Assembly: GCA_020148055.1 (NCBI GenBank)
Contig: JAHCRF010000001.1
Location: forward strand, 71,257-135,256
DNA: 64,000 nucleotides
DNA from: Patescibacteria group bacterium
Lineage (GTDB): Bacteria > Patescibacteriota > Minisyncoccia > Minisyncoccales > JAHCRE01
Direction: 5' to 3'
Positions 1,426-51,799 of this stretch are shown in pieces (within the stretch, counting starts at the first letter, position 1; each line of letters starts with the position of its first letter). The translations under genes were made by a program, and so were the position numbers. The notes under the pieces were generated by a model. That model did no database searches, was not told where the DNA came from, and saw nothing but the letters and a program-made list of their open reading frames with translations.

Positions 1426-2694
1426 TTAACTTATTCTTAAATTCGCATCAGCTTCAATATCAGGGGCCCGCCAAAGGCGGGAAGGTGGTCGGGACGCGAG
1501 GCCTTCTCGTGAAACGGGAGGCCCCGTCCTTGGGCGGGTCGGAGTCCAGGCCTTAGTTTCTTTTCTGAGATAACGAAAATAAGCAGCTACTGCCACCATA
1601 ACGGCATTATCAGTACATAAAATTTTTGGTGGAACCAAAAATTTAATCGTTAATCGCTGGTTTTTAATTGCTAATTGAAATTGTTTTCTTAATTCATTAT
1701 TGGCAGCCACCCCTCCACCAAGGATAATCATTCCGGCTTTATATTTTCTTGCTGCCTGGATGGTTTTATGAATTAAAACGTCAACTATTGCCTGTTGGAC
1801 CTCGGTAGACATTTCCTGGATAAATTTTTGCTTTTTGCGTTCTGTTTTCTGTTTTTTGATTTTATATAAGACCGCGGTTTTCAGACCAGAAAAACTGAAA
1901 TCAAAATTTTTTTGGTGAATCATTGGCCTCGGTAATTGAATATTGAATATTGAATATTGAATATTGGATTTTAATTGAGCGGCAAGCCGTTCAATGGCCG
2001 GTCCTCCTGGGTAATCCATTCCTAAAATTCTGGCTACTTTGTCAAAACATTCACCAGCAGCATCATCTCGAGTTTCACCAAGGATTTTGTATTCTCCGTA
2101 ATTTTTCATTAAAATTAACTGGGTATGACCGCCGCTTACCACTAAACAAACTGCCGGAAACGAAAACTTTAAACTTGAACCAACCAAGTTGGCGAAAATG
2201 TGAGCTTCGATATGGTTTACTGGGATTATTGGTAGTTCCCAAGAAAAAGCTAAAGCTTTGGCAAAATTTACCCCTACCCACAAGCAAGGTTCTAACCCTG
2301 GCCCCATAGTCACGGCAATTAGATCAATTTTTGGTTTCCTGTAATTTCTTAAGAATTCTTTTAACTCCTTTAAAAGATATTCTTCTCGTTTGAATATTTC
2401 TTCTAATACTGGATACTTGATACTTAATAGTTGATGCTTATCATTTTTTTTAAGCGATTTTGCTTTTTTTAACGCCCTTTTTAAAACAGGAATCAAATTT
2501 CGTTGGTGCTCTCTTTTAGCTAAGGTTGGATAGACTCCTCCATATTTTCTGTGAATTTTTATCTGAGAAGAGATAATATCAGACAGAATATTAATTTTCA
2601 TCCGTCTAAATCCGCGTTGTAATCTACCTTTATCTACTTCTACAATCGCTATACAGGTATCGTCACATGATGTTTCGACAGCAAGAATAATCAT
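1426..2694 (-). CDS. tsaD: tRNA N6-adenosine threonylcarbamoyltransferase TsaD (Kae1/Gcp family)
   Basis: MIILAVETSCDDT, NHIEAHI, VSGGHTQL, LCTDNAVM motifs. At 422 aa it is longer than usual because of repeat inserts at 1463-1547 and 1935-1969. Confidence 0.9.
   Translation of the reverse strand: MIILAVETSCDDTCIAIVEVDKGRLQRGFRRMKINILSDIISSQIKIHRKYGGVYPTLAKREHQRNLIPVLKRALKKAKSLKKNDKHQLLSIKYPVLEEIFKREEYLLKELKEFLRNYRKPKIDLIAVTMGPGLEPCLWVGVNFAKALAFSWELPIIPVNHIEAHIFANLVGSSLKFSFPAVCLVVSGGHTQLILMKNYGEYKILGETRDDAAGECFDKVARILGMDYPGGPAIERLAAQLKSNIQYSIFNIQLPRPMIHQKNFDFSFSGLKTAVLYKIKKQKTERKKQKFIQEMSTEVQQAIVDVLIHKTIQAARKYKAGMIILGGGVAANNELRKQFQLAIKNQRLTIKFLVPPKILCTDNAVMVAVAAYFRYLRKETKAWTPTRPRTGPPVSREGLASRPPSRLWRAPDIEADANLRIS
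1463..1547 (+). repeat. GC-rich hairpin element family A, copy 1 (in frame near the 3' end of tsaD, antisense to the host)
   Basis: 85 nt, about 87% identical by eye to 28032-28115. It is a GC island in AT-rich DNA and encodes ...TPTRPRTGPPVSREGLASRPPSRLWRAP... of TsaD. Confidence 0.9.
1935..1969. repeat. five-heptamer array (attgaat x4 + attggat) inside tsaD
   Basis: Direct reading. Encodes ...SNIQYSIFNIQ... upstream of the conserved FDFSFSGLKTAV. Confidence 0.85.
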
Positions 2695-4515: not shown

Positions 4516-6711
4516 TTATTCTAAATGGATTCTTTCTCGAAACTTCTCTACTCTTCCCCTTAATAAGGGATATTTTTTTAATTCAGGGTCCTCTTCTAAA
4601 ATTTCTTTAGCCGCCTTTCTAGTTTTCTCAACTAAGAATATATCTTTCAAAGCTGACATTGCTAAATCAGGAATTCCCCATTGTCTTTGACCAAAAAAAT
4701 CACCAGGGCCTCGAATTCCCAAATCTTTTTCAGCTAACTCAAAACCATTTTCAGAAGAAATCAAAGCTTTCAATCGTTGATGAGTTTTCTTAGCTGGAGA
4801 GTCAGTGAATAAAAAGCAAAAAGATTGATATTTTGATCTTCCTACTCTTCCCCGAAATTGATGGAGCTGCGCTAGCCCAAATCTTTCTGCTCCCTCAATC
4901 ATCATTACCGTGGCATTAGGAACATCGATCCCCACTTCAATTACTGAGGTTGAGACTAAAATGTCAATCTTTTTACCCCTTCCGGTTTGTGCAGAAAAAT
5001 GTTTCATTATCTTCTCTTTTTCTTTTGTAGTCATTTTCCCGTGTAACATTCCAACTTTTAAATCAGGGAAAACAATTTTTGATAGTTTTTGATATTCTTC
5101 TTTTACTGCCCTTACCTCAGCCCAGCTTGAAATTTCTTTTTCTATTTTTTCCTTATCACTAGGTTCAATCCTTGGGCAAATAACAAAAACCTGTCTTCCT
5201 TTTTTAACAACAGAGCGTATAAAATTATAAGCAGCCTTACGATTTCCCGGGGCAATCACCTTAGTGACGATTTTTTTCCTTCCCTTCGGCAATTCATTAA
5301 TTAAAGAAAGATCAAGATCACCGTAAATAGTAAGAGCCAAAGTCCTTGGAATTGGGGTAGCGGTCATTGATAATAAATGGGGAATTATTCTTGTTGCTTG
5401 CCCGCCTGCCGGCGAGGCTGGTTGCTGGTTGCTAGTTGCTAACTTTGCCCTTTGTTCCACTCCAAACCGATGCTGCTCATCCAGGATAACCAGAGCCAAT
5501 TTTCCAAAGCGCACTTTTTCTTGAATTAAGGCGTGAGTACCAATTAAAAGATCAATCTCTTCTTTTTTTAATTTTTCTAAAAGTTTTTCTCGAGAAATTT
5601 TGATAACTTTATTTTTTCTGTCGCCGAAAGCGACTCCCCGGAGGGTTGCTCTTTTAGAAAAAATTCTATTTTCTTTCCCGGTTAAAAGACCAATATTTAA
5701 ATTAAATTTTTTTAAAAGTTTTGAAATCTCCTGAAAATGTTGCTTAGCTAGGATTTCAGTTGGAGCCATAAAAGCCACTTGGAAACCTTGTTTTATTACA
5801 TTTAAAGCAGCTAATACAGCCACCACTGTTTTCCCTGAACCAACATCGCCTTCTAAAAGTCTGTTCATCGGTCTTGGTTTTTCGAGGTCTTTTAGAATCT
5901 GCCAGGCTGATTTTTTTTGGGCATTAGTTAATTTGAAAGGTAAGCTTTTAACAAAATTCTTAATTAACTGGGGATGAAAAGGGATTGGAATTGCTCTTTC
6001 TTTTGAGATTTTTAATTTCTCTCTTAAAACAAAAAGAGAAATAAAAAAAAGCTCCTCAAAAGAAAATCTTTTCTGAGCCTTTTTGGCTAAGGTTAAGGAA
6101 TCTGGGAAATGAATCTGCCAGATAGCTCTTTGGATTGGCAAAATTCGAGAATCTCTAATTACTTTTCCTGGTAGGGGTTCGCGAATTTTCTTTTTAAACT
6201 CAACCAAAAGGGGTCTTAGAATAAATCTTAACCATCTTGAAGACAATCCTTCAGTTTCGGGATAAACAGGGACAATTCTTCCGGTATGAATTAGACTTGT
6301 AGTTTGACTGATTTTCTCATGAGCTGGATTTGATAGATAAAGTCCTTTGTCTCCGAGAGTTATTTTTCCAGCTAAACATAAATTATCTCCTGATTTTAAA
6401 ACTTTTATTAAATAAGGTTGGTTAAACCAGATTACCTTTATTGCTCCTGATTTGTCTTTGACTATTGCCTGGGTTAAAATCATTCTTTTTTTCCAGGTTC
6501 TGATGTTTTCAATTTCTAGAATTTTTACCTTAATACAACAGGTTTCATTAAGTTTTACTTGAGATATCGGAATTATATTTGAAAAATCCTCATAGCGATG
6601 AGGAAAATGATAGAGAAGATCCCTGATTGTCTTTATTCCCAATTTCTTCAACCTCTTTTGGTAGCTGAGACCTACTCGAGGCAGACTCTCAATTGGAGTA
6701 GAAAGATTCAT
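4516..6711 (-). CDS. recG: ATP-dependent DNA helicase RecG
   Basis: Start moved to ATG 6711 (MNLSTPIESLPRVG), below the tRNA. Has DVGSGKT Walker A, LDEQHRFG, MTATPIPRTL and QFRGRVGRS. Contains inserts B and E. Confidence 0.9.
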   Translation of the reverse strand: MNLSTPIESLPRVGLSYQKRLKKLGIKTIRDLLYHFPHRYEDFSNIIPISQVKLNETCCIKVKILEIENIRTWKKRMILTQAIVKDKSGAIKVIWFNQPYLIKVLKSGDNLCLAGKITLGDKGLYLSNPAHEKISQTTSLIHTGRIVPVYPETEGLSSRWLRFILRPLLVEFKKKIREPLPGKVIRDSRILPIQRAIWQIHFPDSLTLAKKAQKRFSFEELFFISLFVLREKLKISKERAIPIPFHPQLIKNFVKSLPFKLTNAQKKSAWQILKDLEKPRPMNRLLEGDVGSGKTVVAVLAALNVIKQGFQVAFMAPTEILAKQHFQEISKLLKKFNLNIGLLTGKENRIFSKRATLRGVAFGDRKNKVIKISREKLLEKLKKEEIDLLIGTHALIQEKVRFGKLALVILDEQHRFGVEQRAKLATSNQQPASPAGGQATRIIPHLLSMTATPIPRTLALTIYGDLDLSLINELPKGRKKIVTKVIAPGNRKAAYNFIRSVVKKGRQVFVICPRIEPSDKEKIEKEISSWAEVRAVKEEYQKLSKIVFPDLKVGMLHGKMTTKEKEKIMKHFSAQTGRGKKIDILVSTSVIEVGIDVPNATVMMIEGAERFGLAQLHQFRGRVGRSKYQSFCFLFTDSPAKKTHQRLKALISSENGFELAEKDLGIRGPGDFFGQRQWGIPDLAMSALKDIFLVEKTRKAAKEILEEDPELKKYPLLRGRVEKFRERIHLE
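5383..5439 (-). repeat. element family B, copy 1 (gcaacNN heptamers + GC hairpin), in frame in recG
   Basis: Sense strand gcaactagcaaccagcaaccagcctcgccggcaggcgggcaagcaacaagaataatt is about 90% identical to 50750-50807. Encodes ATSNQQPASPAGGQATR. Confidence 0.9.
5620..5649 (+). repeat. element family E, copy 1 (gtcgccgaaagcgactcc hairpin), in frame in recG
   Basis: The gtcgc/gcgac stem with its flank resembles 48138-48156 (gtcgccgtaaggcgactcc). Encodes ..TLRGVAFGDRK... Confidence 0.7.
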
Positions 6712-16161: not shown

Positions 16162-16962
16162 ATGGAGTTGGTTTCCTTTTTCTCTCTTTTTATTTTCCTT
16201 TTTGGATTAGCAGTAGGTAGTTTTTTAAATTCAATAATTCACCGCTTACATACCGGCGAAAGTTTTCTATTTACTCATTCCTATTGTCCTCATTGTAAGC
16301 ACAAATTAAGCTGGCAAGATTTAATTCCTATTTTGAGTTTTCTAATTTTAAAAGGAAAATGCCGATATTGTAAAAAAAAGGTGTCCTTGCAATATCCCTT
16401 GGTTGAGTCAGCAACTGGAATTTTATTTATTTTAACTACCCATTACACACTACTTACTATAAGCTACGAAAGTTTACTGTTTACTGTTTACTGTTTACTG
16501 TTAAGTTGTTTCTTAATAATAATTTTCGTTTACGATTTAAAACACTATATTATTCCGGATAAAATAATTTATCCTGCAATAGGCATTGCCTTTATCTATA
16601 ATATTCTTTATTCATACTTCATAATTCATAATTCCTATTTCCTTGTAAATAGTTTATTAGCAGCCTTTACTGGAGGCCTCTCTTTTCTTTTTATTTTTCT
16701 CCTTTCGGGTGGCAAATGGATGGGTTTTGGTGATGTTAAGTTAGTTTTCTTTATGGGTCTTTTTTTGAGTTTTCCAGATATTTTGGTTGCTCTGTTTTTA
16801 GCCTTTTTAGTTGGTGCTATAATAGGGATAGGGTTGATTTCGGCTGGTAAAAAAACTCTTAAGAGTGAAGTTCCTTTTGGCCCTTTTCTGGTGACAGGAG
16901 CCTTTATCGCTTTCTGTTTCGGAAATCAAATAGTAAATTGGTATTTAAAAATTTTAAGATGA
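16162..16962 (+). CDS. pilD: prepilin peptidase PilD (A24 family) with N-terminal Cys4 domain
   Basis: CPHC...CRYC, multiple TMs and the GFGDVKL catalytic Asp context. TATAAT lies 6 nt upstream of the ATG. Carries two heptamer arrays. Confidence 0.85.
   Translation: MELVSFFSLFIFLFGLAVGSFLNSIIHRLHTGESFLFTHSYCPHCKHKLSWQDLIPILSFLILKGKCRYCKKKVSLQYPLVESATGILFILTTHYTLLTISYESLLFTVYCLLLSCFLIIIFVYDLKHYIIPDKIIYPAIGIAFIYNILYSYFIIHNSYFLVNSLLAAFTGGLSFLFIFLLSGGKWMGFGDVKLVFFMGLFLSFPDILVALFLAFLVGAIIGIGLISAGKKTLKSEVPFGPFLVTGAFIAFCFGNQIVNWYLKILR
16472..16506. repeat. five-heptamer array (gtttact x4 + gttaagt) inside pilD
   Basis: Direct reading. Encodes ..LLFTVYCLLLSC... Confidence 0.8.
16607..16641. repeat. 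five-heptamer array (tttattc atacttc ataattc ataattc ctatttc) inside pilD
   Basis: Contains the 18-mer attcatacttcataattc, which is identical to part of the rpoB-rpoC spacer arm (30522-30556). Confidence 0.8.
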
Positions 16963-27177: not shown

Positions 27178-30100
27178 ATGAAGTTTAAAGATTTTTCAAA
27201 ATCAAAAATTTCCCTACCCTTACCTTATTTACTCTCGATTCAAAGAGAAAGCTGGCAGAGATTTTGGGAAAGAGATTTAAAAGAACTCTTTTCAGAAATA
27301 TCGCCCATTCAAGATTATACCGGAAAGGAGTTAGAACTCTGGTTTTTAGACTATAAATTGGATGAGCCCAAATATAAAACTACCTTGGAAGCTAAGGAGA
27401 ATAATGATTCTTATGAAGCAGCCTTGCGGGCTAGAGTAAGATTAGTCAATCTCAAAACAAAAGAAATTAAAGAACAAGAAGTCTTTTTAACCGATTTCCC
27501 CTTAATGACCAAGAGAGGAACTTTTATTGTTAACGGGATAGAAAGAGTAGTTATTTCTCAGCTTATTCGTTCCCCCGGCGCCTTTTTTACTTCTCAGATA
27601 ATTAGAGGTGAAACTCATTTTGGAGCAAAAATTATTCCTAATCGGGGAGCTTGGCTTGAATTTGGAACTGAAGCCTCCGGTTTTATTGGAGTTAAGATTG
27701 ACCGAAAGAGAAAAGTAGCAGCTACTACTTTATTGAGAGCTTTCGGAATTGATCAAGATGAAAAAATTCTAGAGATCTTCCAAGATATTGATAACAATCC
27801 AGAAATTAACTATATTTCAGAGACAATAAAAAGAGACCCTACTAAAAATCAAGCCGAAGCCTTAATTGAAGTCTATCAGCATCTAAGACCAGGAGATTTA
27901 ACAACCGCTGAGACAGCTAGAGAGTTGATTGAAAACATGTTTTTTAATTTTGAAAGATATGATTTGTCAAAAGTAGGGAGATGGCGAATGTGGCAGAGAC
28001 TACCGGAATTGAAAAAATCCAAAATCCAAAAGGGGCCCACGAAAGTGGGAGGGCGGTCGGGACGCGAGGCCTTCCCGCGGAACGGGAGGCCCCGTCCTTG
28101 GGTGGGTTGGAGTCCAAAATCCAAAACTAAAAAGCCAAAGCTAGAAGAAGGAATCACCAGGTCAGATAGGGTTTTGCATCCCGAAGATATTGTGGCTGTT
28201 TTGAGAGAGATTATTAGATTAAATAATGACCCCGGGGGAAAACCCGATCAGATTGATCATTTGGGCAATCGGCGAGTAAGAACTTTAAATGAACTTTTAC
28301 AAAACCGATTAAGGGTAGGTTTAATGAGAATGGCCAGGATTATCAAAGACCGAATGGCTACTTTAGATATTTCCATCTTAACCCCGGTTCAATTGATTAA
28401 TTCCCGACCATTTATAGCGATAGTTAGGGAATTCTTTACCTCTTCTCAGCTTGCTCAGTTTATGGACAATGAGAATCCTCTTGCTGAATTAGAGCATAAA
28501 AGAAGACTATCAGCTACCGGACCAGGTGGTTTAACTCGAGAAAGAGCTGGGTTTGAGGTTAGAGATGTTCAACCATCCCATTATGGAAGGATTTGCCCTA
28601 TCCAAACTCCTGAAGGACCAAATGTTGGGTTAATTAATCATTTAGCTGGTTTTGCCCGAGTTAATCCTTATGGTTTTATTGAAACTCCTTATTTCAAGGT
28701 GAAAAATGGAAGGGTTACTTCAGAAATTTGTTATCTTAATGCCTATGAAGAAGAAAAGTATAATATTGCCCATGGAGGAGTACCAATCGATGAGAAAGGC
28801 AAAATTACCTCCAAAAAGGTTGAAGCTAGAGTAAAGGGTGAACCAGGAATAGTTGGTAGAGAAAAAGTTGATTTTTTCGACATCTCTCCTGCCCAATCAA
28901 TTTCTATCGCTACTTCTTGCATTCCTTTTTTACAAAATGATGATGCCAACCGAGCCTTAATGGGATCAAATATGCAAAGACAAGCTGTTCCTCTTCTCAG
29001 ACCAGGGGTTCCCCTAGTTATTACTGGAGCAGAAGAGAAGGTAGCTAGAGATTCTGGCCAGGAGATAATTGCCGAGGAAGAAGGGGTTGTTACCGAAGTC
29101 GATGCTAATCATATTAAAATTAGGGGTAAAAAGGGAGAAAAGAAATATCCTCTGCAAACTTTTATTCAGACCAATCAATTCACTTGTTTTCATCAAAGCC
29201 CCTTAGTTAAAAAAGGGAAGGTTGTTAAAAAAGGAGACATTTTAACTGATGGTGGAGGAATTTCTCAAGAACATTTAGCTTTAGGCCGAAATATTTTGGT
29301 TGCTTTTATGTCCTGGCGTGGAGGAACTTTTGAAGATGCAATTTTGATTTCTGAAAGATTGGTTAGAGATGATGCTTATACTTCAATTCATATTGAGGAT
29401 TTTAGTTGTGATGTTCGAGAAACCAAATTGGGACCGGAGATTACAACCTGTGATATTCCTAACGTTTCAGAAGAAAAATTGAGGAATTTAGATGAAGAAG
29501 GTTTAGTCAGAATTGGGGCTGAAGTTGGCCCAAATGATATCTTGGTTGGGAAGATTTCTCCAAAAGGAGAAGTTGATTTAACTGCTGAGGAAAGATTATT
29601 GAGAGCTATTTTTGGAGAGAAAGCTAGAGAAGTTAAAGATACCTCTTTATTAATGGAGCATGGTAAACAGGGGAGGGTAATTAATGTGAAGATTTTTTCT
29701 AGAGAATCGGGTCATAGACTTGACCCCGGAGTGATAAAAAGAATTGATGTTAAAGTAGCGGAGATTAGAAAAACTCAAGCCGGTGATAAATTAGCTGGTC
29801 GCCATGGGAATAAGGGAGTGATTTCTAAGGTTTTACCAATTGAAGATATGCCATTTTTAGAAGATGGAACTCCAGTCGATATTATTTTAAATCCTCTAAG
29901 CATTGCCTCGCGAATGAATATTGGTCAAGTTCTGGAAGCTCATTTAGGAAAAGCGGCCAAAAAATTGGGCTACATTGCTATTTCTCCGGCCTTAGCTGGA
30001 GTGACTGAGGAAGAGATTAAAGAAGAGCTTAGGAAGGCTGGATTACCAGAAGATGGAAAAGTCGCTCTTTATGATGGCCGAACCGGCCTACCTTTTTCCA

Positions 30101-30480
30101 AAAAAATTACTGTTGGCTATGTTTATATGATGAAATTAATTCATATGGTTACCGATAAAATCCACGCCAGATCAATTGGACCTTATTCTCTAATTACTCA
30201 ACAGCCCTTAGGAGGAAAGGCCCAATTTGGAGGTCAAAGATTCGGAGAAATGGAAGTTTGGGCTTTAGAAGGACATGGAGCAGCCCATAGTTTACAGGAA
30301 ATGTTAACTATTAAATCCGATGATGTCCAAGGTCGGGCAGCTGCTTATCAGGCCATCTTAAAAGGAGAGCCAATCAGAAATCCTAATGTTCCCGCGTCTT
30401 TAAATTTACTAATCAATGAATTAAAGGCTCTTGGGCTAAATGTTGAAATAAAAGAAAACCCCAAAGAACAAGAATCCTGA
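27178..30480 (+). CDS. rpoB: DNA-directed RNA polymerase beta subunit
   Basis: 1100 aa with canonical beta motifs (GRHGNKGV, FGEMEVWALE). Carries a 123-nt repeat insert at 28014-28136. Confidence 0.97.
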   Translation: MKFKDFSKSKISLPLPYLLSIQRESWQRFWERDLKELFSEISPIQDYTGKELELWFLDYKLDEPKYKTTLEAKENNDSYEAALRARVRLVNLKTKEIKEQEVFLTDFPLMTKRGTFIVNGIERVVISQLIRSPGAFFTSQIIRGETHFGAKIIPNRGAWLEFGTEASGFIGVKIDRKRKVAATTLLRAFGIDQDEKILEIFQDIDNNPEINYISETIKRDPTKNQAEALIEVYQHLRPGDLTTAETARELIENMFFNFERYDLSKVGRWRMWQRLPELKKSKIQKGPTKVGGRSGREAFPRNGRPRPWVGWSPKSKTKKPKLEEGITRSDRVLHPEDIVAVLREIIRLNNDPGGKPDQIDHLGNRRVRTLNELLQNRLRVGLMRMARIIKDRMATLDISILTPVQLINSRPFIAIVREFFTSSQLAQFMDNENPLAELEHKRRLSATGPGGLTRERAGFEVRDVQPSHYGRICPIQTPEGPNVGLINHLAGFARVNPYGFIETPYFKVKNGRVTSEICYLNAYEEEKYNIAHGGVPIDEKGKITSKKVEARVKGEPGIVGREKVDFFDISPAQSISIATSCIPFLQNDDANRALMGSNMQRQAVPLLRPGVPLVITGAEEKVARDSGQEIIAEEEGVVTEVDANHIKIRGKKGEKKYPLQTFIQTNQFTCFHQSPLVKKGKVVKKGDILTDGGGISQEHLALGRNILVAFMSWRGGTFEDAILISERLVRDDAYTSIHIEDFSCDVRETKLGPEITTCDIPNVSEEKLRNLDEEGLVRIGAEVGPNDILVGKISPKGEVDLTAEERLLRAIFGEKAREVKDTSLLMEHGKQGRVINVKIFSRESGHRLDPGVIKRIDVKVAEIRKTQAGDKLAGRHGNKGVISKVLPIEDMPFLEDGTPVDIILNPLSIASRMNIGQVLEAHLGKAAKKLGYIAISPALAGVTEEEIKEELRKAGLPEDGKVALYDGRTGLPFSKKITVGYVYMMKLIHMVTDKIHARSIGPYSLITQQPLGGKAQFGGQRFGEMEVWALEGHGAAHSLQEMLTIKSDDVQGRAAAYQAILKGEPIRNPNVPASLNLLINELKALGLNVEIKENPKEQES
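28014..28136 (+). repeat. nested insert in rpoB: 'aaaatcc' heptamer array interrupted by element A
   Basis: aaaatcc aaaatcc aaaa[84-nt A]aaaatcc aaaacta aaaagcc. The total of 123 nt equals 41 codons. Confidence 0.8.
28032..28115 (+). repeat. GC-rich hairpin element family A, copy 2 (in frame in rpoB, sense)
   Basis: 84 nt, about 87% identical to 1463-1547. Encodes ..GPTKVGGRSGREAFPRNGRPRPWVGWSP... Confidence 0.9.
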
Positions 30481-30556
30481 ATTATGAATTAGGAATCAAG
30501 AATAAAAAATAAGAAATAAAAATTCATAATTCATACTTCATAATTCGTAATTCTGA
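30476..30556. repeat. composite palindrome in the rpoB-rpoC spacer: 5x7 'NNNgaat' array, 11-nt core, 5x7 'attcNNN' array
   Basis: cctgaat tatgaat taggaat caagaat aaaaaat / attcata attcata cttcata attcgta attctga. The left arm overlaps the rpoB stop codon. Confidence 0.8.
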
Positions 30557-30560
30557 TATT

Positions 30561-33500
30561 ATGAGAGTAGCTGATCTTAAATCAATAAAAATTCGCTTAG
30601 CCTCACCAGAAGAAATTTTATCTTGGTCTCATGGCGAGATTACTAAACCTGAAACCATCAATTATCGAACTCAAAGAGCAGAAAAGGACGGTCTTTTTTG
30701 TGAAAGAATTTTCGGGCCAACTAAAGATTATCAATGCTATTGCGGTAAATATAAAAGAATTCGTTATAAAGGGATAACTTGCGATCGCTGTGGGGTAGAA
30801 GTGACAAAATCTTCGGTCAGACGAGAGAGGATGGGTCATATCAAATTGGCCTCACCGGTTTCTCATATTTGGTTCTTAAGAGGAGTACCGTCGCGAATGG
30901 GAATAATCTTAAATGTTTCTTTACCCAAATTGGAAAGGGTAATTTATTTTGCTGCTTACATTATCACAGAAGTTATAGAGGAGGCTAAGAAAAGAGTTTT
31001 AAAAGAGATTGAGAAAGAATACAGGTCAAAGGTAAAAACTCAAAAAGCTTCCCCAGCCCCACCCGCCACCCATCAAAGGAAAAAAACATCTAAGGCAAAA
31101 ACAAAAAGTAAAAATAAAATAAAACCCCAAGACCTGAAAGTAGCCAGAGATAAAGCTAAAGAGGAAGTGTTAGCTTTGAAACCTTTGAAAATTCTTTCTG
31201 AGGTGGAATATCACAATCTTTCTTTTAAATATGGAGAGGTTTTTACAGCGGGAACAGGAGCAGAAACTCTAAGGAAAATTTTTGAGAAGATAGATTTTAA
31301 AAAAGAAATTACCAAATTAAAAAAAGAAATTGAAAAAGCCTCACCGGTGAGTCGAAGAAAAATTTTAAGGAGATTGAAACTCTTCCAGTCGATGTCTAAC
31401 GCAAAACTGAGACCAGAGTGGATGTTTCTGAATGTTTTGCCGATTTTACCCCCAGATTTAAGACCAATGGTTCAGTTAGATGGTGGTCGTTATGCTTCCT
31501 CTGATTTAAATGATCTTTATAGAAGAGTAATTAATCGGAACAACCGTTTGAAATATCTTTTAGAAATTGCAGCTCCTGAAGTTATTGTTAGAAATGAGAA
31601 AAGAATGTTGCAGGAAGCAGTTGATGCTCTGATCGATAATGGAATGAGAAAGGGAGTAATTACCAGGGCGACCACTGGAGGAAGAAGGCTTTTGAAATCT
31701 TTAGCTGATATGTTGAAAGGAAAACAAGGGAGATTCAGGCAAAATCTTTTAGGTAAAAGAGTTGATTATTCGGGCAGATCGGTGATTGTCGTTGGACCAA
31801 AATTAAGACTTCATCAGTGTGGTCTTCCTAAAAAGATGGCCTTGGAATTATTTAAACCTTTTGTTATTAAAAGAATTTTAGATAAAGAATTGGCTTACAA
31901 TGTAAGGGCAGCTTCGAGGTTGATTGAGCAGGAAACCGAGGAAGTTTGGGCAATCTTAGAAGAAGTGGTTAAAGATAAATTGGTTTTATTAAATCGGGCT
32001 CCAACCTTACATCGATTAGGAATCCAGGCTTTCCAACTAATATTAATTGAGGGAGAAGCAATTCAAGTCCATCCTTTAGTTTGTAAAGCCTTTAATGCCG
32101 ATTTTGATGGGGATCAAATGGCTATCCATTTACCTTTATCAACTGAGGCCCAAAAAGAGGCTAAAGAAATAATGTTATCTACCTTAAATCTTTTGAAACC
32201 AGCCACTGGTATTCCAATTGTAACTCCTACTCAAGATATTATCCTTGGCTGCTATTTTTTAACCAAAATTAAAGAGAAAGCTAAAGGGGAAGGGAAGATC
32301 TTTGGAAATTTCCAAGAGACCGTTTTAGCTTATGAGTTTGGAGAGGTAGACTTAAAAGCCGGAATCAAGGTTAAAATAAAGAATTCGGAATTTTTAGAGA
32401 CTTCGGTTGGGCGAATTATTTTTAATGAGACTTTACCCGCAGGCTTCCGGTTTATTAATGAAGTGATAAATTCAAAGAAATTAGAAAAAGTGATAAGTGA
32501 AATTATTGAAAATTACGGAATAGAAAGATCGGTTGCTACCCTGGATAAAATTAAAGATTTGGGATTTGAATATGCCACTATTTCAGGTTTATCCTGGGGA
32601 ATGGATGATTTAGATATTCCTAAAGAAAAAGAAGAATTAATTAAAGGGGCAGAAACAGAAATAGAGATGATCGAAGAACACTTCAAAAAAGGGTTACTGA
32701 CTGAGGAAGAAAAATATCTAAAGACAATTGAAATTTGGCAAAAAATAAAATCAAAAATTGAAAAAATTGTTCCGAAGACATTACCATCTGAGAGTTCAGC
32801 ATTTTCAATTGTTGATTCCGGAGCGAAAGGCTCCTGGATCCAACCTGTGCAGATGTGTGGAATGAAGGGTTTAGTGATTAATCCAATGGGACAGATTATT
32901 GAACTTCCAATCAAAAGTTCTTATAAAGAAGGATTTAATGTTTTGGAATATTTCATTTCTACCCATGGAGCAAGAAAAGGAACAGTTGATACGGCTCTAC
33001 GTACCTCTACTGCTGGCTACTTAACCAGAAGACTTATTGATGTCGCCCATGAGGCAGTAATAACTGAGGAAGATTGTCATGACGAGAAAGGGATTGAAAT
33101 ATCCAGAGGGGATGCTGAAGAAATTGGCCAGAATTTTATCTTCAAGATTTTAGGGAGAGTAGTTATAGAAGATGTCAGAAATCCCGCCAGAGGCGAGGCT
33201 CGCCAAGGGCGGCAAAAAGCAAAAAGCAAAATTATCAAAAAAGGAGAAATAATTGATTGGAAAGCGGCTGAGGAAATAATTAAAGCTGGGGTTGAAAAAG
33301 TTCGAGTTCGTTCTCCCTTAACTTGTAAGTCAACCAGAGGAATTTGCCAGAAATGCTATGGCTGGGATTTAGGCTCAAATCAATTAGTTAAATTAGGGGA
33401 AGCGATGGGGATTGTTGCTGCCCAGGCGATTGGCGAGCCGGGAACTCAATTAACGATGAGAACTTTTCATACCGGTGGCGTGGCTGGAGGAGAAGATATA

Positions 33501-47327: not shown

Positions 47328-48803
47328 TTAATTCCTAGTCAACATTTTTTCCTTTCTCAATTTCCTATGATAAGAAATCGCAAATCGGTGAGCCTCGTCA
47401 CGTAATTGCAAAATTAAATTGAAAATTTCTCTTGGTAAGTTTTTCAGAAAAATCGGCCTTTTTCGATTCTCAATGTATAGTTTATTTCCCTTTTTAGCTA
47501 AACTTGCAACTATTATCTTTTTTTTGCTTTTTGCTTTTTGCTTTTTGATTTTGAGGGCAGCGTTAAGTTGCGTGATTCCCCCATCAATTAAGACCAAATC
47601 TGGCCAGCCCCATTCAGGATGTTGCAATCTCCGAGATAAAATTTCTTTTATCATTGCTATATCACTCGGTCTGCCAGAAATCTTGATTTTAAATTTTCGA
47701 TAAAATTCTTTAGCTGCCTGGCCTCTAATAAATGTCACCATGGCACCTACAGCTAATTTTCCAGAAATATTTGAAATATCATAGGCTTCAATTCTTTTTA
47801 TCTTCTTTTCGGTTTTTAAAATTTTCTTTAAAATTTTTTGAATTTGGGGCCAGTCCAAAATTTTTGCCTGCTTGCCAGGATCTGTGACTTCAAGCGCTGG
47901 CAGGCGGGCATTAAGGATTACCTTTTCTAAGGAAAATATTTTATCCCTAATTTTGGCTGCTTTTTCAAAATTTTGCAAATCAGCTGCTCTTTTCATTTCT
48001 TTTTTTAAATTTCTTAAGACCTGATTTCTTTTTCCTTGGAGAATTTTGAGAAGATTTCTGGCGTTCCTTTGACACTCCTTTTTAATTTTTTCTCTTAGCC
48101 CAGGAATTTGAGAACTAAGTTTTGCTCCCCCCCTAGGGTCGCCGTAAGGCGACTCCTTCAGGGATTTTAATAGGCAAGGAGCTGGACAACGACCCAATTG
48201 ATACCAGAGACAAGGTCTTTTTGGCAAGATTTTGCAGGTTCTGTAAGGGAGAGCTTTCCTTAAAATTTTTAGAGTTTGTTTTAAAGCTTTACCATCAACA
48301 AACGGACCAATAAACTGGAATTTAGAATTATGAATTATGAATGATGAATTATAAGGTTTTTTCTTTTTTGTTCTTGATTCTTGATTCCTGACTCTTGATT
48401 CCCAAAATGGTTGGTGGGTCAAGAATACTCTTGGAAAGCCCTCTTTAGCTATTCCAACATAAAAATAATTTTTGTCATCTCGCCAAACAACATTATATTT
48501 TGGTAGAAATTTTTTTATTAAATTTGCCTCCAGAATTAAAGCCTCGATTTCTGAATCAGCTTTGATAAAACCTATTTTTTTGGTTTTATCTAGAAAAATA
48601 CTTTCTTTGAAACCGGGTTGTTGAAAATGATTTTTAACTCGCTTTCGAATATTTGAAGCTTTGCCAATGTATAAAATTTTCCTTTCTTTGAAGCAATAAA
48701 CCCCCGGCTTTTTAGGAAGTTTTTTAACCCCCTCCTTTTTTAAAAATTTAAATTTTTTCACGTTCGGTAATCCGATTTTAACTTGAAATTGATAATTTTT
48801 CAA
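47328..48803 (-). CDS. uvrC: excinuclease ABC subunit C
   Basis: GIY-YIG N-terminus (PGVYCF..ILYIGKA..), UvrBC domain, RNase H-like endonuclease domain and a C-terminal HhH region. Interrupted in frame by four repeat inserts. Confidence 0.9.
   Translation of the reverse strand: MKNYQFQVKIGLPNVKKFKFLKKEGVKKLPKKPGVYCFKERKILYIGKASNIRKRVKNHFQQPGFKESIFLDKTKKIGFIKADSEIEALILEANLIKKFLPKYNVVWRDDKNYFYVGIAKEGFPRVFLTHQPFWESRVRNQESRTKKKKPYNSSFIIHNSKFQFIGPFVDGKALKQTLKILRKALPYRTCKILPKRPCLWYQLGRCPAPCLLKSLKESPYGDPRGGAKLSSQIPGLREKIKKECQRNARNLLKILQGKRNQVLRNLKKEMKRAADLQNFEKAAKIRDKIFSLEKVILNARLPALEVTDPGKQAKILDWPQIQKILKKILKTEKKIKRIEAYDISNISGKLAVGAMVTFIRGQAAKEFYRKFKIKISGRPSDIAMIKEILSRRLQHPEWGWPDLVLIDGGITQLNAALKIKKQKAKSKKKIIVASLAKKGNKLYIENRKRPIFLKNLPREIFNLILQLRDEAHRFAISYHRKLRKEKMLTRN
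47531..47565. repeat. five-heptamer array (tttttgc x3, tttttga, ttttgag) inside uvrC
   Basis: Direct reading. Encodes ..KIKKQKAKSKKKI... Reverse complement of the rpoC array family. Confidence 0.85.
47866..47909 (+). repeat. 13-bp GC hairpin insert in uvrC (gcctgcttgccag-N18-ctggcaggcgggc)
   Basis: Direct reading. Two of the 13 pairs are G:T, which is only tolerated if the plus strand folds. Shares caggcgggca with family B. Confidence 0.65.
48125..48163 (+). repeat. element family E, copy 2 (gtcgcc-gtaa-ggcgac hairpin at 48138-48153), in frame in uvrC
   Basis: Perfect 6-bp stem with a GNRA-type loop. Encodes ..KESPYGDPRGGAK... Related to 5620-5649. Confidence 0.7.
48315..48401. repeat. complete 87-nt composite palindrome ('gaat/attc' family) inserted in frame in uvrC
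   Basis: ctggaat ttagaat tatgaat tatgaat gatgaat, then a 17-nt core, then ttttgtt cttgatt cttgatt cctgact cttgatt. 35+17+35 = 87 nt = 29 codons (..ESRVRNQESRTKKKKPYNSSFIIHNSKFQ..). Confidence 0.85.
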
Positions 48804-48864: not shown

Positions 48865-49698
48865 ATGAAAGAAAAAGTTATTAAAATCCGTGGAGCCAAA
48901 GTTCACAATTTAAAAAATATTAATCTTGATATCCCAAAAAACAAACTGGTAGTGATTACTGGGATTTCAGGTTCAGGAAAATCATCTTTGGCCTTTGATA
49001 CATTATATGCTGAAGGACAAAGAAGATATGTTGAGAGTTTATCTGCTTATGCAAGGCAATTTTTAGGAGTGATGGATAAACCAGAGGTTGACAAAATTGA
49101 AGGAATTTCACCTGCAATTTCAATTGACCAAAGAAAAGCAGCTCACAATCCACGCTCCACTGTTGGAACCATTACTGAAATTGCAGATTACTTAAGATTA
49201 TTATTCGCTAGGATAGGGAAGCCCCATTGTCCAAAATGTAAAAAAACAGTTAGCCGTCAGACCATCGATCAAATTACTGATCAGGTTTTGAAATTGCCAA
49301 AAAGAACAGAAATTTCGATTTTGGGTCCAGTTGTTAGAGGTCGAAAAGGAGAGCATCGGGGAATTTTAGAAGAGATTCAAAGATCAGGATTTATCCGAGT
49401 GAGAATTGATGGGATTTTACACCGAATTGAAGACTACAACCCACCCACCATGTCCTCCCACTCGCTTCGCGAGCGGGCCCCTACTCTAGGGCTGAAGTTA
49501 GACCGAAAGAAAAAACACAATATTGAGGTTGTTGTTGATAGATTAATAATTGATAAAGACTTGGATAGATCAAGGTTGGTTGATTCTCTGGAAACAGGCC
49601 TAAAGTTGGGAAAAGGAATAGTAATAGTAACTCAAAAAGCTTCCCCAGCCCCACCCGCCACCCATCAAAGGAAAAAAACATCTAAGGCAAAAATCTAA
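48865..49698 (+). CDS. uvrA: excinuclease ABC subunit A, N-terminal fragment; the frame ends at TAA inside or just after repeat element C
   Basis: [47 protein letters not shown]... TATAAT (48852-48857) lies 7 nt upstream of the ATG. Confidence 0.85.
49435..49492 (+). repeat. GC-rich insert D in uvrA (hairpin cccactcgc-ttc-gcgagcggg at 49457-49477)
   Basis: GC island encoding ..[19 protein letters not shown].. between conserved RIDG and [13 protein letters not shown]. Shares gcgggcccct with the reverse complement of element A copy 1. Confidence 0.65.
49629..49693 (+). repeat. element family C, copy 2; coincides with the frame break in uvrA
   Basis: Identical over 65 nt to 31037-31101. Confidence 0.95.
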
Positions 49699-51799
49699 TG
49701 ACTTAATATTCAGCGAGTATTTTGCCTGCGAGGAATGTGGGATTTCTCTTCCAGAATTAGAGCCTCGGCTTTTTTCATTTAATTCTCCTTATGGGGCCTG
49801 TTCAGCCTGCCAGGGGCTTGGAGAAAAATTAGAAATCGATCCAAAATCAGTTTTACCCAATCCAAATTTATCGATTTCTGAAGGAGCAATTTTTCCCTGG
49901 GCTCATGCCTCTCATAAAGTTGGCAGGCAGGGTTATTTTTGGTGGCAGTTCACCCACTTGGCAGAAAAGTATAACTTCTCCTTAGATGTCCCGGTTAAAG
50001 AACTTCCCAAAAAGATCATTGATTTAATTTTATATGGTAATGGCCAATTTGAGGGAGTAGTTCCCAATTTGGAAAGGAGATATCACGAAACTGATTCAGA
50101 ATATACCCGTAAGGAAATTGAGCAGTATATGATAAAAAAGAGATGTGAAAAATGTCAGGGAAAAAGATTAAGGCCTGAAGCCTTGGCAGTGACTGTGATA
50201 AAAAAATCAATAAATGAAATCGTTGAAATTTCAATAGAAAAAGAAAAAAGATTTTTCGAGAATTTACTACTAAATCCTAAATCCTATAACCTAAATCCTA
50301 ATGACTACAAAATTGCCCAACCAATTGTTAAGGAAATCATTAAGCGATTACAATTTCTAATTGATGTTGGTTTAGATTATTTAACCTTAGATCGGAAGAC
50401 AGAAACTTTATCGGCTGGGGAAGAGCAGAGAATAAGATTGGCTACTCAGTTAGGTTCTCAATTAACCGGAGTTTTATACATTTTGGATGAACCTTCAATT
50501 GGTCTTCATGCTAGAGATCAGGGTAGGCTCATCGAAACCTTAAATAAGTTAAGGGATTTGGGCAATACCGTTATTGTTGTTGAACATGATCCTCAGACAA
50601 TCATGGCTGCTGACTGGGTGATCGATATAGGGCCAGGAGCGGGGAAACACGGTGGCAAAATTATATTTAAGGGAACACCAAAAGAATTACTGAGATCAAA
50701 GACACTTACTGGAGATTATTTAGCTGGAAGAAAGAAAGTTGAGATAAAAGCAACCAGCAACAAGCAACCTGCCTCGCCGACAGGCGGGCAAGCAACCAAG
50801 AATAATTATCTAATAATAAAGAAAGCGGCTGAGCACAATCTCAAAAATATTGATGTTAAAATTCCTTTGGGAAAATTTGTCTGCATTACTGGAGTTTCGG
50901 GTTCGGGCAAAAGTTCTCTAATGAATGATATTTTAGCTAAAGCCCTGATGAGGAAATTTTACAAAGCCAAAGAGGAACCGGGAGAATTTAAAGAATTAAT
51001 TGGAACAGAATTTTTGGATAAAGTGGTTTTAGTGGATCAGTCTCCAATTGGCCGAACCCCCAGATCAAATCCGGCAACTTATACCGGAGTTTTTTCTTAT
51101 ATCAGAGATCTTTTTTCAAAAACCAGAGAGGCCAGAATTAGGGGGTATCGGCCAGGACGTTTCAGTTTTAATGTTAAGGGAGGAAGATGTGAAGTATGTC
51201 AAGGTCAGGGTCAAATCAAAATCGAGATGTACTTTTTGCCTGATATTTATATTGAGTGCCAGGAATGTAAGGGGAAAAGGTTCAACAAAGAAACCTTGGC
51301 TATTGAATATAAAGGAAAGAATATTGCTGAGGTTTTAGAAATGACAGTTGAAGAAGCCCTAAAATTTTTCATAAATATTCCCGGTATCTATCATAAATTA
51401 AAAACTTTGTATGATGTTGGTTTAGGCTATATTCAATTGGGCCAGCCAGCCCCTTCTTTGTCTGGAGGGGAGGCCCAGAGAGTGAAATTAGCTACTGAAC
51501 TTTCTAAAAGGGCTACGGGAAAGACTTTATATATTTTAGATGAACCAACCACTGGTTTGCATCCCGATGATATTAAAAAATTAGTTTGGGTTTTGAGAAA
51601 TCTGGTAGATAAAGGAAATACGGTTTTATTAACTGAACATAACATCGATATCATCCGCAATTCAGATTGGATAATAGATTTAGGACCGGAAGGTGGAGAT
51701 GAAGGCGGCGATATTATTGCAATAGGTACTCCATTTGAAATTACAAAAAACAAAAAAAGTTATACCGGACACTATTTAAAACAAGTTTTTAAATCTTGA
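49631..51799 (+). CDS. uvrA: excinuclease ABC subunit A, remainder of the gene in the +1 frame (open from 49631; UvrA homology resumes about 49700)
   Basis: [41 protein letters not shown]... and a second ABC module, [10 protein letters not shown]...[12 protein letters not shown]...[12 protein letters not shown]. The track only lists it from 49958. Confidence 0.85.
50271..50305. repeat. five-heptamer array (taaatcc taaatcc tataacc taaatcc taatgac) inside uvrA
   Basis: Direct reading. Encodes ..[15 protein letters not shown]... Confidence 0.85.
50750..50807 (+). repeat. element family B, copy 2, in frame in uvrA
   Basis: gcaaccagcaacaagcaacctgcctcgccgacaggcgggcaagcaaccaagaataatt. Encodes [17 protein letters not shown]. 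Confidence 0.9.

Follow-up and report, generated by a model that had tools for sequence, protein, structure and literature searches.

A probable recent frameshift in uvrA of a Patescibacteria group genome, associated with a short stretch identical to rpoC

The uvrA gene in the 64,000-nucleotide stretch of DNA analyzed here (the window) is interrupted by a single frameshift, which coincides with a 65-nt block that is identical to part of rpoC in the same genome. The break is, in our judgment, probably a real, recent and likely inactivating frameshift that originated from an ectopic copy of rpoC placed into a hypervariable loop of uvrA; we infer the rpoC-to-uvrA direction, the copying mechanism and the loss of function from the sequences compared below. 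A preliminary description of the locus had listed inactivation of uvrA, a split or recoded uvrA, and a homopolymer or chimeric assembly error without ranking them, and inactivation is the option favored here, as the probable consequence of the break. Coordinates of the features discussed are collected in Table 1.

Table 1. Features of the uvrA frame break, its rpoC counterpart and selected repeats (positions refer to the 64,000-nt window).
Feature	Position	Strand	Remarks
uvrA 5' part, frame 1	48865..49698	+	277 aa from ATG; Walker A and UvrB-interaction domain; PF17760 UvrA_inter, E 1.2e-33
uvrA 3' part, frame 2	49694..51799	+	701 codons; Zn module, DNA-binding domain PF17755, ABC_tran, both ABC signature/Walker B regions
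Frames 1 and 2 both open	49631..49695	+	sole such interval
Frame 1 premature stop TAA	49696..49698	+	
Frame 2 last stop TAA upstream of block	49628..49630	+	
65-nt block ("element C") in uvrA	49629..49693	+	100% identical to rpoC 31037-31101
In-frame rpoC copy, likely donor	31037..31101	+	starts inside conserved K-V-K-T-Q-K; includes apparent lineage-specific insert of ~54 nt (18 residues)
A7 run	49672..49678	+	same run in rpoC copy; removal of one A restores the frame
G-quadruplex-type motif GGGTGGCGGGTGGGGCTGGGG	49643..49663	-	template strand; twin at 31051-31071
Minimal stretch differing from L003	49631..49690	+	60 nt vs 32 nt of (AAATTCC)n array; net +28 nt; AA shared at the left junction, AAA at the right
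Period-7 arrays, examples	1935-1966, 16472-16502, 30464-30553, 47521-47552, 48325-48401, 50270-50301, 50749-50769		

The 5' part of uvrA is read in frame 1, which is open from 48826, up to the premature TAA, and conserved UvrA sequence then continues in the +1 frame (frame 2), while frame 3 is closed across the region. The coordinates previously given for this break were reproduced, and the last upstream TAA of frame 2 lies directly before 49631, from which that frame is open. Because both frames are open only in the overlap listed in Table 1, a rescuing +1 shift must fall within it, and this interval coincides with the block as had been proposed. The A7 run and the A5 run (49689-49693) recorded earlier are both present in the sequence, along with an additional A5 at 49634-49638. 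Loss of one A restores the frame, so the earlier arithmetic was correct, and a +1 slip anywhere in the overlap would likewise lead to full-length UvrA. The UvrA homologs place this genome in Candidatus Nealsonbacteria (Patescibacteria/CPR), and an artificial UvrA joined at 49692/49694 could be aligned along its whole length with 20 UvrA proteins of Nealsonbacteria.

The first ATG, GTG or TTG codon in frame 2 is the TTG at 49958, and therefore 86 conserved codons (49700-49957) are beyond the reach of re-initiation. Re-initiation past the TAA was considered and rejected: the stop-overlapping ATG (49698-49700) belongs to frame 3 and its reading ends after two codons, and frame 2 is startless for 86 codons. 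A split uvrA as a working solution, one of the possibilities raised previously, is excluded by the lack of a frame 2 start codon before 49958. Translation ends after 277 residues, with Walker A and PF17760 retained and without the following zinc module, the PF17755 DNA-binding domain, the site I ABC signature and Walker B, and the entire ATPase site II. The gene has a frame break with no route to its downstream conserved part, a trait of frameshift pseudogenes, and uvrA is probably a newly formed pseudogene or, at most, an allele with very leaky expression. The proper annotation would be a frameshifted uvrA, neither two genes nor a recoding site. The neighboring uvrC, as well as ligA and recG, are intact, and uvrB was not found within the 64-kb window.

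The block is an exact direct repeat of 65 nt, and the flanks of its two copies are unrelated. A 32-nt core of the block occurred twice in the window versus zero times in 100 shuffles. The rpoC copy is located 18.6 kb upstream of the uvrA copy on the same strand, and, as the preliminary description had stated, it is in frame, residing inside a 1214-aa RpoC ORF. A search with a 24-nt block core yielded no match in 185,579 species genomes (genome_contigs) or in JGI metagenomes (metagenome_contigs). Canonical G-quadruplex motifs on either strand of the 64 kb were confined to the two block copies, where they are on the template strand of rpoC and uvrA; such motifs could have a bearing on the stalling of forks and on template switching.

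Judged on assembled contigs, the uvrA break is most likely real. The window corresponds to ENA scaffold_298 (36 kb, assembly ERZ23498930, ZHAO22-1_SAMN13740702), with exact agreement at all six loci compared, and NCBI holds a record of the identical RpoC (MBZ9578340.1), encoded on a contig of 137 kb. The 36-kb and 137-kb contigs agree base for base at the compared loci and presumably represent different assemblers. No NCBI protein record was found for the UvrA pieces although RpoC of the same contig has one, which would be expected if NCBI annotated uvrA as a frameshifted pseudogene. The study behind the BioSample examined subseafloor sediment off Costa Rica using Illumina NextSeq 2x150 reads, MEGAHIT, and SPAdes re-assembly of bins. 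The ENA record is linked to the NextSeq metagenomes at the study level only, because the paper puts SAMN13740702 among the amplicon BioSamples, and both assemblies were probably built from one read set. A sister MAG from the same sample, CR_Bin_053, is represented by NODE_7..._cov_12.86, which follows SPAdes NODE naming.

An assembly or consensus artefact would mean that uvrA is truly in frame and that the break reflects a homopolymer miscall, a collapsed repeat, or path switching between strain variants of the hypervariable loop. Such errors are conceivable given that the loop is hypervariable among close relatives, that at least two related Nealsonbacteria populations are present in one sample (L005), that the coverage of the sister MAG is only ~13x, and that the two assemblies probably share their reads. 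Several observations nevertheless make this explanation quite unlikely. An A7 run is not usually miscalled by Illumina, and the window contains 133 A/T runs of at least 7 (93 of 7, 38 of 8, and 2 of 9; approximately one per 480 nt), yet no second broken gene is evident in it: its ORF map is unbroken, and neighboring ORFs that were checked as pairs proved to be separate genes. Furthermore, contigs of the MEGAHIT type and of the SPAdes type do not differ. The block extends 15 nt past the A7 run, less than any k used, so that no poppable bubble should form between the copies, and both junctions should demand genuine junction-spanning k-mers. Mis-pairing or a collapsed repeat would be expected to produce a uvrA-rpoC chimera, whereas the actual block has correct uvrA sequence on both sides. 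The homopolymer or assembly error suggested earlier is accordingly improbable, given the Illumina 2x150 reads, the two identical assemblies and the many other long A/T runs in a window where no other broken gene is evident.

A related contig of 122 kb (L010; ENA ERZ25039515 contig_37715) carries every gene, including uvrA, uvrC and groEL, in ORFs of 60-170 aa, a fragmentation typical of uncorrected long-read assembly and in contrast to the state of the window. Short "split UvrA" database proteins from contigs like this one are not to be taken as biology. Recurrent splitting of uvrA was considered, as a loop-centered protein search gave short UvrA fragments, and was rejected; the one inspected (P0283) sits on the shredded L010. 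At 100% identity, the same search returned only the 277-aa piece itself.

Comparison with relatives indicates that the break is very recent. The best 120 UvrA homologs are all single proteins of 922-1039 aa. The uvrA of a related genome, L003 (GCA_974434335.1), is 93-99% identical to the window over 49320-50133, and in it the frame is intact and the block is absent. Outside that tract, over most of the region (uvrC-uvrA-groES), L003 is 97-99% identical to L004 (CR_Bin_053) and 70-90% identical to the window, while inside the tract (~800 bp centered on the uvrA loop; L003:10001-12961 compared) it is 58-91% identical to L004. This mosaic is the product of either inter-lineage recombination or a chimeric contig, and in both cases L003 preserves a window-type uvrA allele that is in frame and blockless. 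Values of dN/dS against L003 and L004 were 0.08-0.13, upstream and downstream of the shift alike, and the two branches are of equal length, with 45 unique amino-acid changes for the window against 40 for L003. The gene shows no decay outside the frame break and no other lesion. The absence of relaxed selection is compatible with a pseudogene, since it is expected for a very young event; the intact uvrC and the otherwise lesion-free uvrA fit a very young pseudogene and a still-working gene equally. Exact look-ups of both UvrA pieces, GroEL, GroES and RpoC, aimed at in-frame siblings, returned only scaffold_298 plus two GroES contigs from other runs (L008 and L009), which are short, begin downstream of uvrA, and are identical to the window where they overlap. 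Cluster look-ups gave singletons only, and a degenerate 44-nt flank pattern for more window-like uvrA alleles matched only the sister MAG CR_Bin_053.

The site occupied by the block is a hypervariable loop. In the intact uvrA of L003, a period-7 array, (AAATTCC)x4.7, lies exactly at this site; this canonical loop encodes NSKFQIPNSKFKSED, and the loop pattern N.K..I.N.K.K..D is common to several other Nealsonbacteria UvrA proteins. The L003 loop is the nearest intact allele and was used as a stand-in for the old loop of this lineage, bearing in mind that divergence from L003 is greater within ~15 nt of the loop than elsewhere in the tract. Relative to this stand-in, the net gain of 28 nt shifts the frame by +1. 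The resident stretch that was replaced must have had a length of 3n+2 nt, because the upstream frame ends in ...GTA and the downstream frame resumes with AAA-TCT-AAT-GAC. On this reading the loop event would be a replacement and not a clean insertion. When the locus was examined as a templated insertion with L003 as the stand-in allele, AA and AAA were shared at the junctions, and 60 nt stood in the place of 32 nt. An identical donor was present elsewhere in the genome, namely the rpoC copy at 100% identity over 65 nt.

Under the scenario we favor, ~60 nt of rpoC would have been copied into the hypervariable uvrA loop that separates the UvrB-interaction domain from the second zinc module, and the copy would have displaced resident loop sequence of a length not divisible by three. 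The homology of the junctions to the old flanks would have been 2-3 nt, or up to ~10 nt had ACTCAAAAA also stood at the beginning of the old loop. The junction anatomy suggests, as the most likely process, template switching guided by microhomology, or a templated fill-in while a break was being repaired. The event would resemble MMBIR/FoSTeS and theta-type end joining in its short, ectopic, same-strand copy from 18.6 kb away, its few shared junction bases, the loss of resident sequence, and the disregard for reading frame; those processes have been described mostly in eukaryotes and in a small number of bacteria, whereas here the process is deduced from the anatomy of the junctions.

The origin of the block itself was addressed by comparison with other RpoC proteins. 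Homologs contain K[VI]KTQK where the block begins (P0125 and P0135, with similar sequence in P0139 and P0133), and the 13-residue insert stretch of the window RpoC was absent from all RpoC homologs aligned. Removing 18 residues from the window RpoC gives ...KVKTQKTKSKNK..., matching ...KIKTQKTKIKK... of P0125. From these alignments, the block seems to begin with rpoC-native codons and to continue into an rpoC insert of ~54 nt that is young and lineage-specific. Since the block seems to hold rpoC-native codons, copying from rpoC to uvrA is favored over two hits by an autonomous element, with the direction held at moderate confidence only because the alignment region is lysine-rich and of low complexity.

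The preliminary description had referred to the block as an element, a label that is questionable considering its two copies, the lack of a palindrome, of a usable target-site duplication and of a public match to its 24-nt core, the apparent rpoC-native codons, and the apparent replacement of resident loop sequence. A small autonomous mobile element, similar to a Rickettsia palindromic element or a MITE, that hit rpoC and uvrA independently would have the same consequence for uvrA. The presence of other short, GC-rich intragenic repeats in the window (85 nt in rpoB/tsaD and 48 nt in uvrA/recG) is in keeping with such an element, as is the length of the differing stretch relative to L003-type flanks (60 nt, a multiple of three), and a native rpoC reading of KVK-K-TKSKNK is conceivable too. 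Even so, we regard this origin as unlikely: there are two copies only in 64 kb and, for the 24-nt core, none in public collections; palindromes and terminal inverted repeats are lacking (MFE -3.1 kcal/mol, z +1.17); T-Q-K at the 5' end of the block is a conserved RpoC position; and resident uvrA sequence seems to have been lost as well. Neither a multi-copy family with defined ends, nor a palindrome, nor a target-site duplication was found for the block within the 64 kb. A candidate CAAAAA target-site duplication was rejected, as the repeats lie within the shared block and the 49-nt core plus 6 nt amounts to 55 nt, which would put rpoC out of frame. Rickettsia palindromic elements and MITE-like repeats are short repeats within ORFs that are translated as extra loop residues at variable surface loops, and the other GC-rich repeats in the window resemble Rickettsia palindromic elements in that behavior. 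The block differs from them in having no palindrome, two copies, apparent rpoC-native codons, and a uvrA copy that breaks the frame.

There is no support for a programmed shift, and no recoding signal was recognized. None of the features of prfB-like sites, i.e. a re-pairing P-site codon at the stop, a Shine-Dalgarno or structural stimulator, and a conserved site, was found at the break. The codon preceding the TAA is AUC, and the +1 codon UCU cannot pair with tRNA-Ile. The A runs do permit Lys re-pairing, in line with the earlier suggestion that a Lys-tRNA could re-pair +1 on AAA, but these runs do not adjoin the stop. Shine-Dalgarno-like bases are limited to AAGG at 49684-49687, and RNA folds of 49629-49693 (z +1.17) and 49620-49760 (z -0.21) were no better than those of shuffled sequences. 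Efficient slippage by bacterial RNA polymerases takes place at runs of ~9 or more, as in Thermus dnaX and the poly(A) tracts of Buchnera, and the longest A/T run in the overlap is the A7. This A7 is not special, because A7 and A8 runs are everywhere in the genome, and slippage at the block should be capped at a low, rare level because every candidate slip site is also present in the essential rpoC. Programmed recoding, as raised in the preliminary description, thus finds no backing in stimulatory structure, in prfB-like context or in run length; furthermore, the shift is found in none of the homologs, the closest allele has an unbroken frame, and the block has its twin in an essential gene.

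In principle uvrA could still work, by transcriptional slippage at the A7, by a +1 ribosomal slip (of Lys-tRNA at one of the A runs, or of Pro-tRNA at the CCC-G of 49651-49654), or by reversible phase variation of the A7 in DNA. Any +1 shift in the frame overlap would produce full-length UvrA, predicted to carry a trans-frame peptide such as ...KKTSKAKSNDLIF..., the remainder of the gene is undecayed, uvrC is intact, and cells need very little UvrA. We consider a working gene very unlikely nonetheless, given an A7 below the slippage length of ~9, the ubiquity of A7/A8 runs in the genome, a block and surroundings without RNA structure, an AUC before the stop that is not re-pairable at +1 with only a 4-nt AAGG nearby, the absence of the shift from every homolog with the nearest allele intact, and the duplication of the candidate slip sites in essential rpoC. 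A low background of rescue, perhaps ~1%, is plausible as a prediction. A more far-reaching variant, in which the block turns uvrA into a stochastic switch, is a long shot: most cells would be without UvrA, rare +1 events (A7, A5, CCC-G) or reversible A6/A7 changes in DNA would restore the full-length protein, and templated copying from gene to gene would supply the hypervariable loops of Nealsonbacteria proteins. If true, this would give a CPR bacterium with a reduced genome a nucleotide-excision-repair, or mutator, state that can be tuned.

The locus was also compared with known classes of broken or shifting genes. Like ordinary frameshift pseudogenes (annotated as "frameshifted" by NCBI PGAP), it has a single break in an otherwise perfectly conserved gene, no restart codon, and no NCBI records for the fragments; here the cause is not a simple indel but a 60-65-nt stretch identical to another gene of the same genome. 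Systems of prfB-type frameshifting or slippage rescue (Thermus dnaX; Buchnera/Blochmannia) share with uvrA an A run in the frame overlap and a protein that is restored by loss of one A. The uvrA case differs from these systems in its A7 rather than a run of at least 9, in having no re-pairing codon at the stop and no proper Shine-Dalgarno or RNA structure, in the lack of conservation of the shift, and in the twin in rpoC. Phase-variable contingency loci have a similar coding homopolymer where one base toggles the frame, but A7 tracts here occur approximately once per 480 nt, and to our knowledge phase variation is without precedent in uvrA.

Taken alone, uvrA adds one more case to the recently broken genes of metagenome-assembled genomes, an ordinary event whose history can be read unusually well. 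With the donor (rpoC), the recipient (uvrA) and an intact allele of nearly identical sequence all at hand, the locus would provide an unusually clean snapshot of the copying of short sequences between genes into variable loops in a CPR bacterium, with the event apparently caught before selection has removed the out-of-frame product. If such copying is common, it would help explain the many lineage-specific loop inserts in Nealsonbacteria proteins.

Other repeats are frequent in the window. Tandem arrays of period 7, each with its own unit, numbered 34 versus ~2.5 expected from first-order Markov simulations, while arrays of other periods were at most a few-fold over expectation. Many of the period-7 arrays are inside ORFs, where a change of one unit would shift the frame. 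Literature searches brought up no relevant work on heptamer arrays or on GC-rich inserts that keep the frame in CPR/Patescibacteria. Within uvrA, positions 49436-49483 hold a 48-nt in-frame GC-rich insert (16 residues) with a CUCGC-UUCG-GCGAG hairpin, which neither L003 nor L004 has and which occurs only once in the window. A different 48-nt repeat is found in uvrA (50749-50796) and recG (5393-5440, minus strand), with 92% complementarity between the strands, same-sense QPASP(T/A)GGQAT in both genes, and flanking heptamer arrays AGCAACC/GCTGGTT; in the sister genome, this position of uvrA is occupied by an expanded form of the repeat, PASPARSAGASARRAGGQAT. An 85-nt repeat with 70% G+C and 85% identity between copies is present in rpoB (28032-28116) and at the 3' end of tsaD (1464-1548, minus strand); it is translated in both genes, in opposite orientation relative to each, and is highly self-complementary by eye. 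Finally, uvrC (minus strand; 48122-48157 and 48307-48401) contains a GC-rich hairpin insert, GGGTCGCCGTAAGGCGACTCC, and a pair of heptamer arrays that encodes ...NSSFIIHNSKFQF..., in which the peptide NSKFQ is shared with the uvrA loop of L003.
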